DNA from: a virus | Lineage: Duplodnaviria > Caudoviricetes | IMG/VR virus record: IMGVR_UViG_3300032213_001264 | Location: 1,555 to 65,554 of that record | Direction: 5' to 3' (one strand) | DNA: 64,000 nt | In this document: in pieces, positions 2,940 through 25,247 of the stretch | Numbering within the stretch: the stretch's first letter is position 1 | Layout: each line of letters begins with the position of its first letter | The notes under the pieces: model-generated | What the model saw: only the letters and a program-made list of their open reading frames with translations | Database searches by the model: none | Told to the model about the DNA's origin: nothing | Made by a program: the position numbers and the translations under genes

Positions 2940-4559
2940 ATGAGTACAACAAAAAATATAAACGGAACAGAACTTAAAGAAAAGTTACTTTCTGGTATTG
3001 AGAAATTAAACTTAGCTGTATCTTCTACATTAGGACCAGGCGGTAGAACGGTTTTAATTAGAGAACAAAACGGTGAAGTTAAAGTAACCAAAGACGGCGT
3101 AACAGTAGCTAAAGCATTCCATAAATTGGAAGACGATGTTGAAGACTTAGGCGCACAGTTAGTAAAGCAAGTTAGTATTAAATCTGCAGTTGAAGCTGGA
3201 GACGGTACAACTACTTCTACTTTATTAGCAACCGAAATGGTTAGAGAAGGATTGAAAGAAATTCGTCAAGGTTCTAACGCAGTAGAGATCAAAAACTCAA
3301 TCGATAAAACAGTTAAACAAGTTATCGAATACATTAAGAAAATATCTATCGACATCGATTCAGAAGAACAAGTAAAACAAGTTGCTACTATTTCTGGTAA
3401 TAACGATCCAGAAGTTGGTAACCTTATTGCATCTGCAGTAGAAAAAGTAGGTCGTGAAGGAGTAATTACAATCGAAGAATCTAAATCTGGAGAAACTAGT
3501 TTAGAAGTAGTTGAAGGTATGCAATTTGATAGAGGTTACAAATCTCCTTATTTCGTTACCAACAACACAACGATGCAAGCGGTATTAGAAGATCCTTACA
3601 TTTTCTTATACGATGGTAGAATCTCTTCAGCACAAGAGTTATTGCAAGTTTTAACTAAAGCAAACTCTGAGAACAAACCATTGTTAATCGTAGCTGAAGA
3701 TATCGGTGAAGAAGCATTAGCAACTTTAATCGTTAACAAGATGAGAGGCATCGTTCAAGTTTGTGCAGTTAAAGCACCGGACTTCGCAGAGAGAAAAACG
3801 CTGATCTTAGAAGATATTGCAATCTTAACAGGAGGTGCAGTCGCTTCTAAAGACAAAGGTCACAAATTAGATAAATTAACTGGAGCTCAAATCAACGAGT
3901 TCTTAGGTAGAGCTAGATTGGTTACGGTAACTAAAGACGAAACTACTATCATCGATGGCAAAGGCGTTGAAACTGTAATTGAAGCAAGAGCAGAAGAGAT
4001 CAAAGAGCAAATCGAAAAGTCTACTTCGTTCTACGAGAAAGAGAAGTTACAAGAGAGATTGGGCAAATTAGTAGGCGGAGTTGCAATCATCAACGTCGGC
4101 GGTAATTCAGATATCGAAATTAGAGAAAAGAAAGATAGAGTTGAAGACGCATTATATGCAACCAAAGCAGCGTTAGCAGAAGGTATCGTACCAGGCGGAG
4201 GTTCAGCTTTATTCCAAGCGTCTATTCAACACCATCCAGAAGAGACTATCCACGATGCTATTGCTTATGGAATTGTTCAGAAAGCGATTCAAAGTCCATT
4301 CAAGAAAATCTTAGAAAACGCGGGAGTTCAGGATTGGTACACAAAAATTCCTAACGAAGGCGACGTATACGATGCAAAGAATCACAAGATTGTTAATGCT
4401 TTAGAAGCTGGTATTATTGACCCTACGAAAGTAGTTATCACCGCACTTAGAAACGCTGCTTCAGTAGCAGGCACTATTTTAACTACTGAATCTGTAGTAT
4501 TCGAAAAGAAAGACAAAGAAGAAAAAACTCAAGACCCAATGATGGGTATGGGAATGTAA
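2940..4559 (+). CDS. groEL: Chaperonin GroEL
   Basis: [44 protein letters not shown]-terminal MMGMGM. Confidence 0.98.
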
Positions 4560-23311: not shown

Positions 23312-23554
23312 ATGTATATGAGAGTTAAATGCATCAAAGCCGACGATACTAATGTTTTAGTAGAAGAAGCAATATACACAGTTGATGCTGTAACAAGTAA
23401 AGGCAATTACCTTTTAGCTGAAACAAATCCTCCAGAAGGTTTTAACTGCTTTGATAAACATCGATTCAAAATCTTAGAAATCTCTTCTCACGAAGACGAT
23501 TTAATTAATGAATACGGATTTGATGAAGAAGAGCTAGACATTATCTTCTCATAA
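23312..23554 (+). CDS. Hypothetical protein
   Basis: 80 aa, AAGTTATG start. Confidence 0.7.
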   Translation: MYMRVKCIKADDTNVLVEEAIYTVDAVTSKGNYLLAETNPPEGFNCFDKHRFKILEISSHEDDLINEYGFDEEELDIIFS

Positions 23555-23577
23555 TTCATATATTTATATACTCACAT

Positions 23578-23948
23578 GGGGATGCTTTGGAATTGATTCA
23601 CAATTCGGAGGTAATACCACACGCAGAGAGAAGTACTAGATCTCTTTAAATCTGTACAAAACAATAACCGACGAAATGTCAACAATGACCTTCGATTCTT
23701 TAATGGAATTCGTAGGCGCGAACGAGTACGCATTAGCTGCTTAATTAGCATCGGGTGTAACATCCTAGGAACAGAAGTTACAAGCCAAATTTTCTTAGTT
23801 TAGATTAAAATTAAGTGGTGGATATCGTAAGGACCAAAAACCATACGACCCTTTTACTGATCAGCTTAAAACGTAGATCTAAGCGTGTGAGACGTTGGTA
23901 TTATTATTCATTGTGAAGACACGAGTTCGACTCTCGTCATCTCCACCA
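23578..23948 (+). ncRNA. ssrA: tmRNA (transfer-messenger RNA)
   Basis: Acceptor stem GGGGATG/CATCTCC with G3-U wobble, A discriminator, encoded CCA; T arm ACGAG-TTCGACT-CTCGT; tag frame 23670-23744 ending YALAA-stop. Confidence 0.95.
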
Positions 23949-23959
23949 AAATAAAAGTT

Positions 23960-24379
23960 ATGAAATGGATTCTTTCTTTTGTAGTAGGGGTGTTCTTTAC
24001 AATACCCTTAAAAAGTACGATTTACTTTTTTAAGTCTGAGGAAACCGAGATTGTAAAGACTGACACGGTAACGGTGACAACTTATACCACAGATACAAGC
24101 GAAACTGATGAAGAGCCACTAATAACAGCTAGTGGTTTTAAACTTGATTCTCTTAATCCAAAAAGACATAAAATAATCGCGGTAAGTAGAGACTTAAAAA
24201 AGAGATATCCTTTTGGGTCTAAAGTAAAAATAAAAGGATTAGGTAAGAAATATGATGGAGTGTATAAAGTAGAAGACGTAATGCACTCAAGGTGGAGAAA
24301 GAAAATAGATCTACTTATAAATCCGAAAGACAAACAGTTTAAAAAGAGAAGAGTTATAATAACTCCTATTGAAAAATAA
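23960..24379 (+). CDS. 3D-domain protein (putative cell-wall hydrolase)
   Basis: ITASG, IIAVSRDL, FGSKVKI, VEDVM, IDLL; N-terminal hydrophobic segment. Confidence 0.8.
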   Translation: MKWILSFVVGVFFTIPLKSTIYFFKSEETEIVKTDTVTVTTYTTDTSETDEEPLITASGFKLDSLNPKRHKIIAVSRDLKKRYPFGSKVKIKGLGKKYDGVYKVEDVMHSRWRKKIDLLINPKDKQFKKRRVIITPIEK

Positions 24380-24464
24380 AAACACAACTACCTGCCGCTG
24401 GTATAACCAGAGCATGACTTGGATGGCGACTTAGAAAAATTGTAGGTAGTTTGTTTCAATATTA

Positions 24465-24572
24465 AGGTTGATTGGAATGTATCCTTTAACTGTAGAAAGG
24501 GCGGGTACCTCGCGGTTAGAAATGCCAATCGTAAAAGCAGATGTCCACGCACCCATCTTCTGCTTTCCTAAA
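24465..24572 (+). ncRNA. Unrecognised structured RNA, copy 1
   Basis: GATTGG/CCAATC and AAAGCAGA/TCTGCTTT stems; homologous to copy 2 with a compensatory change. Confidence 0.6.
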
Positions 24573-24579
24573 TTTTTTT

Positions 24580-24720
24580 GGGTTGATTGGGGAATGGTAT
24601 AGGTTAGCCTGTTGGTGGCGCTCAAAAAGCATTGGCCGACTATATCGGAGTTTAAACCATCATTAGTAATGCCAATCATAAAAGGAGTTGTCCACTGAAC
24701 CATCCTCTCCTTTCCTAAAT
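24580..24720 (+). ncRNA. Unrecognised structured RNA, copy 2
   Basis: GATTGG/CCAATC and AAAGGAG/CTCCTTT stems; 3' 60 nt differ from copy 1 at 9 positions. Confidence 0.6.
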
Positions 24721-24727
24721 TTAATAT

Positions 24728-24843
24728 GCCGGTGTGGCGGAATAAACAGTGTCTACTGACGAGTAGCATTGAGACGTACCTGATTCGAAGTGGTGGAGTG
24801 ACCGAAAAGGACTCCGTGAGGGTGAAAATCCCTTCCACCGGCA
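24728..24843 (+). tRNA. Aberrant type II tRNA-like RNA (pseudo-tRNA; positional anticodon CGA)
   Basis: Acceptor GCCGGTG/CACCGGC, D stem GCG/CGT with inserted hairpin, variable arm GGAGT/ACTCC, T arm GAGGG-TGAAAAT-CCCTT; anticodon stem poorly paired. Confidence 0.55.
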
Positions 24844-25049
24844 CCGTATTGGTTTAAAAAAAATCAAAAATTAGTAATAGTATTACCGATATTGCGATAA
24901 TTTTAAACTGACAAAGACGTTAGCTGTAAACGTCTTATATAAAATAAACAGGACCATTGGCATTGACGTCTTAAGCTGGTGGTTGGTGGTTGAAGAAACG
25001 CAATACTAAGGGTCTGCAGCCCTAGTCTAAGTATTGTCGCCACCGTAAT

Positions 25050-25122: not shown

Positions 25123-25247
25123 CACAAATCGTTCGAACGTGGAACGACGAAGACGGCCATGGCATACCGTAAGATCTGCTTGCTTAATAGCCCCGAATCG
25201 TATGTCGGCGATGTTGGCAACTCATAGGGTAATTTAAAAGTTGTAAC

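Follow-up and report, generated by a model that had tools for sequence, protein, structure and literature searches.

On a 64,000-nucleotide (nt) stretch of viral DNA (Duplodnaviria; Caudoviricetes), which comprises positions 1,555 to 65,554 of the IMG/VR record IMGVR_UViG_3300032213_001264 and is referred to below as the window, two adjacent RNA elements with a common scaffold, unit 1 (24465-24569) and unit 2 (24580-24716), occupy the plus strand between a transfer-messenger RNA (tmRNA) gene and a group of transfer RNA (tRNA) genes. The source record contains 65,554 bases, with an estimated completeness of 35%, and the protein content of the window includes a GroEL-like chaperonin, glycosyltransferases and an aminotransferase, a combination that would fit a large phage. 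The tmRNA gene is located at 23578-23948, an open reading frame (ORF) of 139 amino acids (aa; 23960-24379) precedes the units, and the genes for tRNA-Thr, tRNA-Ser and tRNA-Gln follow from 25050 onward, as found by ARAGORN and Rfam.

A sequence-only reading of the locus had pointed out the likeness of the two units, and its description of the sequence was borne out. Both units open with GGTTGATTGG, at 24466 and 24581, and both close with a common block, TTAG...CCTAAA, that we count as 57 nt long and that differs at 9 positions. The GATTGG/CCAATC pairing encloses inserts of 49 nt in unit 1 and 81 nt in unit 2, the 3' hairpin shows a compensatory swap between the units (AAAGCAG/CTGCTTT versus AAAGGAG/CTCCTTT), its loop is conserved, and the position between tmRNA and tRNAs is as described. 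A 52-nt degenerate pattern of the block has 2 matches in the 64-kb window and none in any of 100 shuffles. With filters off, a covariance model built from the family alignment (R1) gave the scores listed below for the two units and at most 3.4 bits for everything else between 24300 and 25450; unit 2 was not retrieved under the default filters. The structural elements are designated P0 (closing helix), P1 and P2 (the two arms), T1 (pairing between the P1-side loop and the P2 loop), and P1a, P1b and X (helices of the inserts).

24465-24569 (+): unit 1, a subtype A member; R1 score 112.4 bits over 24458-24577
24465-24467 (+): unit 1, 5' strand of P0, AGG, pairing with CCU at 24567-24569
24469-24475 (+): unit 1, 5' strand of P1, UGAUUGG, pairing with 24525-24531
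24479-24508 (+): unit 1, insert with the interrupted helix P1a/P1b, capped by the loop AACUGUAG (24488-24495)
24514-24516 (+): unit 1, putative 5' strand of T1, GGU, the proposed partner of the P2 loop
24518-24524 (+): unit 1, AGAAAUG, an invariant strand that precedes the 3' strand of P1
24525-24531 (+): unit 1, 3' strand of P1, CCAAUCG, pairing with the P1 5' strand
24534-24541 (+): unit 1, 5' strand of P2, AAAGCAGA, pairing with 24559-24566
24542-24558 (+): unit 1, P2 loop of 17 nt, UGUCCAC GCACCC AUCU, with ACC at 24551-24553 as the T1 3' strand
24559-24566 (+): unit 1, 3' strand of P2, UCUGCUUU, abutting the P0 3' strand without a gap
24567-24569 (+): unit 1, 3' strand of P0, CCU
24580-24716 (+): unit 2, a subtype B member, from GGG to CCU of P0; R1 score 99.1 bits over 24578-24724, filters off
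24584-24590 (+): unit 2, 5' strand of P1, pairing with 24672-24678
24596-24602 (+): unit 2, 5' strand of P1a, GGUAUAG, pairing with CUAUAUC at 24640-24646
24610-24616 (+): unit 2, 5' strand of X, UGUUGGU, inside P1a, pairing with ACCAUCA at 24656-24662 (6 of 7 pairs form)
24640-24646 (+): unit 2, 3' strand of P1a, with covariation in subtype B
24650-24653 (+): unit 2, 5' strand of T1, GUUU, within CGGAGUUU, pairing with GAAC at 24697-24700
24656-24662 (+): unit 2, 3' strand of X, with covariation in subtype B
24665-24671 (+): unit 2, invariant strand AGUAAUG
24672-24678 (+): unit 2, 3' strand of P1
24681-24688 (+): unit 2, 5' strand of P2, AAAGGAGU, pairing with 24706-24713 through 7 pairs and a terminal U-U mismatch
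24689-24705 (+): unit 2, P2 loop, UGUCCAC UGAACC AUCC
24706-24713 (+): unit 2, 3' strand of P2
24714-24716 (+): unit 2, 3' strand of P0, CCU; UUUGGG/CCUAAA could lengthen P0 to 6 pairs

The two units belong to a large family. Scans of IMG/VR with exact patterns, which fixed parts of P1, P2 and the loop and by which most members were retrieved, yielded at least 179 loci with at least 185 units, the first two scans returning at least 119 stretches each. In 150 of the 168 units first extracted, the exact complement of the 6-nt P1 3' strand, preceded by GGTT, was present upstream, and the P1 3' strand itself occurred as CCAATC (125), CCAGTC (22), CCAGTT (14), CTAATC (3) and CCAATT (2), with two odd extractions. 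The insert between the P1 strands varies from 17 to 103 nt, and the units accordingly range from about 70 to 145 nt, with a minimal natural version of about 75 nt. By insert and loop, the units fall into subtype A (110 units, like unit 1), subtype B (67, like unit 2) and subtype C (8). Six other loci contain two units, in all cases A followed closely by B, as in the window; thus, the pair reflects two old subtypes that repeatedly occur side by side rather than a recent duplication. Indeed, homologues, covariation and contigs from RNA libraries, whose absence would have been expected of a simple duplication, are all present. A loose pattern of the 5' part (AGGTT...AG.AA.G.......TAAAAG) gave 114 matches, of which 105 were chance matches without P1 complementarity, and no new variants; a further variant was seen in five metagenome contigs, among small ORFs. 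The family is abundant in viral metagenomes from fresh water. Together, these results establish a widespread, highly conserved and intricately folded RNA family.

To assess the core fold, 113 distinct sequences were aligned with MAFFT, and P0 (AGG/CCU), P1 (7 base pairs (bp), of which the closing one is U:R) and P2 (8 bp) were imposed on the alignment. Standard pairs occupied 98.4% of the 2,034 cells, compared with 93.0% in shuffles; 8 of the 18 pairs showed changes on both sides, and none of 500 shuffles reached the covariation score. When the 3' partners were slid by 1 to 3 columns, pairing fell to 39-60%. P1 is paired in 100% of the cells, with changes on both sides at 3 of its 7 pairs, and it is closed by U:G (77 sequences) or U:A (36) among the 113, which fits only an RNA of the plus strand. 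The fifth pair of P2 occurs as GC (39), UA (35), CG (27), AU (8), UG (3) and GU (1). P0 is paired in 99.1% of the cells and hardly varies; the support for it comes from rare variants, namely UGG/CCA in three loci (L026, L174 and L194) and GAGU/ACUC in L168. P2 abuts P0 with zero nucleotides between them, and in a few cases, read directly from the sequences, a 7-bp P2 is accompanied by a 4-bp P0 (L168 and L178), so that the length of the stack stays near 11 bp.

The strands that join these helices are U, UA and none. On the insert side, P1 is flanked by the strands AGWAANG and G(G)AAU, which vary little or not at all and are kept in all copies from cellular genomes; A, G, A, A and G of the AGAAAUG strand are present in 113 of the 113 aligned sequences and recur in the archaeal and Bacteroidia copies. 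A scan pattern that fixed only the 5' end, P1 and the linker, and so left the loop free, retrieved 40 members, every one of which has the loop [U/C]GUCCAC....CCAUC. We picture the fold as a "tuning fork", in which the closing helix P0 (3-4 bp) would stack on P2 (7-8 bp) with the P1 arm alongside. Kissing of the P1 and P2 loops through T1 (3-5 bp) would gather about 25 invariant unpaired nucleotides into one pocket, and the subtypes A, B and C are set apart by optional structured modules on P1.

The six variable positions of the P2 loop follow the subtype. In subtype B, GUUK located 3' of the insert helix faces loop positions 2-5 (SRAC) to form T1. Among 48 distinct units of this subtype, the terminal position of T1 pairs as U:G in 23 and as G:C in 22 and does not pair in 3; the adjoining pair is either U:A (36 units) or U:G (12), and the remaining two pairs are invariant. 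Reading of the sequences places the U:G/G:C switch within each insert subgroup, so that it does not represent one inherited change. T1 also covaries between the subtypes: it is GGU:ACC in subtype A, this being the sole partner that is also kept in the 17-nt minimal inserts, and GGGG:CCCC, GGGC:GCCC (L184) or GGGA:UCCC (L165) in subtype C and in the cellular copies. The pseudoknot between loop and insert, which the sequence-only reading had put forward as speculative, thus exists and covaries in the 48 subtype B units, but the partner named at that time, GGGT/GGTT, is wrong, the GGGT (24503-24506) being part of the covarying insert helix of unit 1. Judging from the sequence, the likeliest partner of ACC 24551-24553 in unit 1 is GGU 24514-24516.

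The inserts of subtype B contain two more helices, P1a and X, which cross and which both show many compensatory variants in 50 sequences. The mean best helix length was 8.1 bp for P1a and 7.8 bp for X, compared with 4.8 and 5.6 bp in shuffled sequences, and X occurs in relatives as TGATGAT/ATCATCA, TGGTAGT/ACTACCA and GTGTATTTC/GAAATACAC. Since the 3' strand of X lies outside P1a and the 5' strand inside, X forms a pseudoknot. In subtype A, the outer helix of the insert covaries among relatives (for example, GCGTACT/AGTACGT and ACCCTATA/TATAGGGT), and the pairing register is ambiguous in the copy in the window. The scaffold is thus constant, as had been proposed, and the inserts do vary; however, they are structured modules conserved within subtypes rather than hypervariable sequences, which makes a role as guides, one of the functions suggested earlier, unlikely. 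The conserved loop of the unit 1 insert, AACUGUAG (AGCUGUAAAA in some relatives), contains CUGUA, which is reminiscent of a tyrosine anticodon loop; subtype B units mostly precede tRNA-Tyr, and the correspondence may be a coincidence.

A coding function of the units was rejected. All three plus-strand frames contain stops in 100 of 118 units, and the insert lengths are not multiples of three (56, 25 and 37 units in the three residue classes modulo 3, all of which are populated). On the minus strand, no frame is open in 54 of the 118 units and one open frame is kept in 62, and the 137-aa minus-strand ORF that runs across the units in the window (24431-24844) has no match in Pfam (best expectation (E) value 0.17). 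The RNA is non-coding and is encoded on the plus strand.

The units are frequently embedded in tRNA arrays. ARAGORN identified 1,041 tRNA or tmRNA genes in the 162 loci of the first two scans. A tRNA on the same strand starts 4-7 nt after the CCU of P0 in 69 of 150 units, and a tRNA ends 2-9 nt before the AGG in 54 of them; the linkers are A/U-rich and vary in length. The downstream tRNA is tRNA-Tyr in 38 of the 69 cases. The coupling is mostly a property of subtype B, in which a tRNA lies within 15 nt downstream of 53 of 65 units and within 15 nt upstream of 36 of 65. No tRNA is found within 15 nt on either side of 52 of 80 subtype A units and of all 5 subtype C units. In the window, the sole sigma-70-like promoter site between 23400 and 25600 lies at 23535-23564, just before the tmRNA; no promoter-like site directly precedes the units, and no credible terminator was found from the tmRNA to the tRNAs, the one terminator-like match on the plus strand lying inside tRNA-Thr. 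Co-transcription of the whole array is therefore plausible.

The protein-coding surroundings are not shared: clustering of 2,038 ORFs within 4 kb of the units in 188 loci revealed no protein family common to them. Members of the largest cluster (33 loci) lie at a median of 1 nt from the units, and this cluster is therefore taken as a spurious ORF overlapping the units. The clusters that follow in size (32, 26, 25 and 24 loci, so that the best real cluster covers 32 of the 188 loci) track phage lineage, and their Pfam matches, to a PD-(D/E)XK nuclease, to peptidase M23 or to nothing, were uninformative.

Several further features of the window were recorded. The gene for the GroEL-like chaperonin is located at 2940-4559 (+) and matches PHROG 5725 (E 1.7e-144), and the tmRNA (83 bits) encodes a tag peptide that ends in ALAA. 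Directly 5' of unit 1, a long hairpin with an interrupted 15-bp stem (24382-24457 (+), folding z -1.79) matches neither Rfam nor R1. Downstream of unit 2, the stretch 24728-24847 (+) resembles a class II tRNA, with ACC after an acceptor stem of 7 bp (GCCGGUG/CACCGGC), a hairpin like a T arm, a long variable arm, a poor anticodon stem and a hairpin of about 25-30 nt inserted at the D-loop region; its folding z is -2.35 compared with shuffled sequence. It was not called by ARAGORN, even in intron mode or at a relaxed threshold, and had no Rfam match, and the start of this element also follows unit B in related loci. Two non-coding stretches on the plus strand flank tRNA-Thr: 24940-25049, which folds into a pair of strong hairpins (z -1.97) and stops 5 nt short of the tRNA, and 25124-25247, which has no folding signal (z 0.39). 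According to R1, neither is a member of the family.

Contigs with the units are present in RNA libraries. Small parts of a 2-kb stretch of the locus were found in 22 RNA runs from 18 studies, and four runs, from freshwater, riverine or aquatic metagenomes, were examined. As these runs were available as assembled contigs, they report presence but not ends, strand or level, and DNA carry-over is possible; stretches that no contig covers were given no weight as evidence. Contigs on the units were obtained in all four runs, as were tmRNA contigs, and the depth of the ORF bins between the tmRNA and the units was 0 in three of the four. In one run (X2), a contig covers 24458-24571 with 1 difference at a depth of 9.6, the contig of a relative covers 24486-24569 at a depth of 95.7, which is within the range of the tmRNA contigs of this run, a third contig extends from unit 1 through unit 2 to 24921, and another lies over 24892-24958. 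A further contig of this run joins 24571 to 24913 with 3 other letters between them and thereby skips 341 nt, that is, unit 2 and the tRNA-like element. Most likely, this joint stems from a related phage that lacks both; a reading as splicing was rejected.

Most members come from phages, in line with the phage family that the sequence-only reading had envisaged, but the family extends further, to a Bacteroidia chromosome and to metagenome-assembled genomes (MAGs) of Micrarchaeota. When one genome of each species was scanned, 15 matches to the pattern were obtained, six of them with the full scaffold; the other nine were judged by eye to be chance matches that lack the scaffold, several of them apparently in coding sequence. 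A pattern match in a cultured Polynucleobacter is among the chance ones, and R1 finds nothing in that genome. One full-scaffold copy (L165) lies on a complete Bacteroidia chromosome (G001:C1, around 1962184-1962282) among small ORFs, and an ORF starts about 25-30 nt downstream of the unit. A neighbor of this copy has a weak match to the Zot family (E 0.00026, 21 bits, compared with a cut-off of 20.3). Zot-family proteins function in the assembly of filamentous phages, and the match suggests that the region is an inovirus-like, filamentous prophage. Two copies are located on small Bacteroidota MAG contigs with tRNAs and the end of a tmRNA; on a Chitinophagales MAG scrap (L166), the order is tmRNA end, tRNA, unit, tRNA. 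The remaining three come from Micrarchaeota MAGs and have unrelated neighbors, namely a Fic-family gene, a DEAD-box helicase and a gene with HEAT repeats. R1 found one copy each in the Bacteroidia genome and the three Micrarchaeota MAGs; over 121 sampled Micrarchaeota genomes, with 27 candidates per genome scored, its only match was in the query genome itself. Such a sporadic distribution is expected of mobile or viral DNA and not of a housekeeping RNA.

The comparison with known RNAs supports the earlier proposal of an unrecognised class of structured non-coding RNA, given the negative Rfam searches, the many homologues, the strong covariation and the RNA contigs that span units. At gathering thresholds, Rfam 15 recognised only the tmRNA and the three tRNAs in the whole window. 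At E values up to 10, between 24350 and 25260, the sole match overlapping a unit was a chance minus-strand microRNA (15.9 bits against a gathering threshold of 88, E 8.8). There was no Rfam match on the unit in five further member loci, minimal ones included, nor in six loci at gathering thresholds. A blastn search of the units against 50,697 phage records, T4 included, gave no match, so that no phage in this collection carries the family, and the 2-kb query matched the collection only at its tRNAs. Full-text searches of the literature yielded no description of the motif; a catalog of 2023 (PMC10690425), with 10,006 anonymous candidate RNAs from viruses and 8,495 anonymous candidate structured RNAs from IMG/VR, may list it in its supplements. 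The family is not in Rfam 15, and no database entry or paper describing it was found.

In its setting, the nearest precedent is a pair of tandem stable RNAs of phage T4, species 1 and 2 (rnaC and rnaD), which have no known function. These are likewise small, 139 and 119 nt long and 6 nt apart, and they lie at the end of the phage tRNA cluster, 1 nt after a tRNA, so that size, order and setting mirror those of units 1 and 2. However, the 3' part of the T4 RNAs is a segment like a T arm, with a terminal CCA, whereas the units have neither. With filters off, R1 gave no more than 1.3 bits for rnaC and rnaD, and its best match in the T4 tRNA region (5.7 bits, E 0.73) lay elsewhere. A second kind of small structured RNA packed against phage tRNA genes is represented by the theta ribozymes of gut phages, minimal relatives of the hepatitis delta virus (HDV) ribozyme of which hundreds have been described (PMC10879173). 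There, the cleavage sites are placed at most 5 nt from the tRNA's 3' terminus, and in 77% of the cases within 1 nt (PMC10879173). Unlike these, the units have their first P1 base about 7-14 nt after the end of the upstream tRNA as predicted by ARAGORN, and only 54 of 150 have such a tRNA; P0 encloses the whole fold, and coupling to a downstream tRNA is commoner than to an upstream one. In the HDV-like fold, which is a nested double pseudoknot, the cleavage site marks the start of P1, and P2, formed between the 3' end and the segment that follows the P1 5' strand, crosses P1. In the units, the AGG partner of the 3' end lies before P1, so that the closing helix is nested and not crossing, and membership in the HDV-like or theta ribozymes was rejected.

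Other assignments were likewise rejected. The units have no Rfam hammerhead match, and junction strands of U, UA and none cannot hold the core of a type III hammerhead as generally defined. An assignment as tRNAs was rejected, since ARAGORN made no call on them, also in intron mode, and Rfam gave no tRNA match at E values up to 10. With regard to a possible stack like that of the acceptor and T arms, with an elbow of loop-loop contacts that ribonuclease P would recognize, P2 and P0 were seen to be continuous at about 11 bp (7+4 or 8+3), with T1 between both loops. Mimicry of the Alu domain of the signal recognition particle, a hairpin- or pistol-like ribozyme core and an anticodon-loop mimic in the unit 1 insert loop were considered as resemblances, with no support from any tool. 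Membership in a riboswitch class does not agree with what follows the units, which is tRNAs, another unit or unrelated genes. Kissing-loop architecture is shared by the purine riboswitch aptamer, the type III hammerhead and, in its D-loop/T-loop contact, tRNA. The layout of these three-way-junction folds is the same as that of the units, in that two hairpin arms emerge from a closing helix and are kept side by side by base pairs between their loops, but their conserved nucleotides lie in the junction, beside the closing helix, whereas those of the units surround the loop-loop helix; no Rfam model of these families matched. The ROOL and GOLLD RNAs, finally, are several hundred nucleotides long, constitute Rfam families and form multimeric cages, whereas the units described here measure 70-145 nt and have no Rfam match. 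ROOL and GOLLD are characterized as orphan, highly structured RNAs with pseudoknots that occur in phages and prophages, frequently close to tRNA islands, with no known function or protein partner and with many GOLLD RNAs longer than 800 nt (10.1101/2024.12.08.627333).

We tentatively favor, at a confidence that falls a little short of an even chance, the reading that the units are stable non-coding RNAs that are released from a phage stable-RNA operon and act through the predicted invariant, pseudoknotted pocket. The units would be co-transcribed with the tmRNA and the tRNAs from the promoter-like site upstream of the tmRNA, and the enzymes that mature the tRNAs would cut them out, presumably in the short A/U-rich linkers. 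The free RNA would then act in trans, not by base-pairing to a target but through its pocket, which would bind a ligand or factor that bacteria and archaea share. A decoy or sponge would be one possibility, and a resemblance to the stacked acceptor and T arms and the elbow of tRNA another. The copies away from tRNAs in Bacteroidia and Micrarchaeota, together with the lack of a common protein neighbor, were counted in favor of action in trans with a universal partner. As the continuous P2/P0 stack of fixed length and the loop-loop elbow recall tRNA, recognition by ribonuclease (RNase) P would be a concrete and testable step of this proposal.

Several results weigh against this reading of a released, trans-acting RNA. 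The RNA contigs cannot show RNA ends, so that excision and stability are inferred. For 67 of the 150 units, no same-strand tRNA is present within 200 nt downstream, and the units have no sequence likeness to tRNA. In single sequences, the folding energy does not differ from that of shuffles (z -0.38 and -0.59 for the two units), and the support for the units thus comes from the comparison with relatives. Because most members were retrieved with exact patterns, invariance at the pattern positions is partly built in. P0 has only 3 bp and is nearly invariant, and its lengthening beyond 3 bp is weak (mean 1.05 compared with 0.85 in shuffles). Moreover, an invariant pocket is as compatible with catalysis as with binding.

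The last point leads to the main rival, which we regard as unlikely but serious, namely that the family is a new class of small self-cleaving ribozymes with the active site at the invariant junction around T1, whose cleavage would help to separate or regulate the transcripts of tRNA arrays and other mobile elements. A small size of about 70-145 nt, a pseudoknotted core of invariant unpaired nucleotides, optional and variable peripheral modules and tandem occurrence would all suit a ribozyme, as would the patchy distribution over phages, a prophage-like region and archaeal MAGs with no common neighboring gene. The tight packing against tRNAs is reminiscent of the theta ribozymes (PMC10879173). 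However, no Rfam ribozyme matched even at E values up to 10, the nested P0 differs from the HDV-like fold, and no cleavage site can be named. The tRNA linkers vary in length, on both the upstream (2-9 nt) and the downstream side (4-7 nt), so that cleavage at the boundary of the unit would not yield mature tRNA ends. To a small extent, the RNA contigs that span whole units also count against self-cleavage.

A quite improbable alternative holds that the units act only in cis, as structured spacers that insulate tRNA precursors against misfolding and fix the sites of action of RNase P, RNase E or exonucleases, the released RNA being functionless. The close apposition of subtype B units to tRNAs and the short A/U-rich linkers would be explained in this way. 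The majority of subtype A units and all subtype C units, though, have no adjoining tRNA, the copies in Micrarchaeota MAGs and in the Bacteroidia chromosome lie outside tRNA arrays, and neither three pseudoknots nor some 25 invariant unpaired nucleotides would be required of a spacer.

We strongly disfavor a riboswitch or another cis-regulatory leader of the downstream gene. A three-way junction with kissing loops resembles some aptamer folds, and the Bacteroidia copy has an ORF shortly after the unit, but the downstream neighbors are inconsistent (tRNAs or a second unit, but also a Fic-family gene, a DEAD-box helicase or small ORFs of unknown kind), which makes this role unlikely, no terminator or stem that sequesters a ribosome-binding site is evident, and no Rfam riboswitch matched. 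Finally, the view that the units have no RNA function at all, being a recent duplication, a DNA-level repeat or part of the 137-aa minus-strand ORF that spans them, can draw on the minus frame that stays open in 62 of 118 units, but it is hardly tenable and, as far as computation allows, is refuted by the covariation, as the compensatory changes and G:U pairs fit a plus-strand RNA, the A-then-B pair recurs in six other loci, each subtype is widespread alone, and neither the insert lengths, the 54 units without an open minus frame nor the Pfam search agree with a protein.

The combination of a core this conserved, several pseudoknots and a spread over phages of bacteria and archaeal MAGs is rare among natural RNA folds, and folds with such properties have often proved to be ribozymes, ligand sensors or mimics of central RNAs of the cell. 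It is conceivable, although on the unlikely side, that the family represents a hitherto undescribed class of functional RNA in nature that needs no dedicated protein to work, either as a self-cleaving ribozyme or, more boldly, as an abundant aptamer made by the phage. Such an aptamer would sequester a signal or factor of the host that bacteria and archaea share, such as a defense-signaling nucleotide, and its expression from the stable-RNA operon would reach levels like those of tRNAs. Among phage loci, this operon, in which the family sits, is of the kind with the strongest expression. The minimal version of about 75 nt makes self-cleavage, processing by RNase P, ligand binding and structure directly testable. 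After T4 species 1 and 2 and the ROOL and GOLLD RNAs, the family would be the third kind of orphan RNA found beside phage tRNA arrays.

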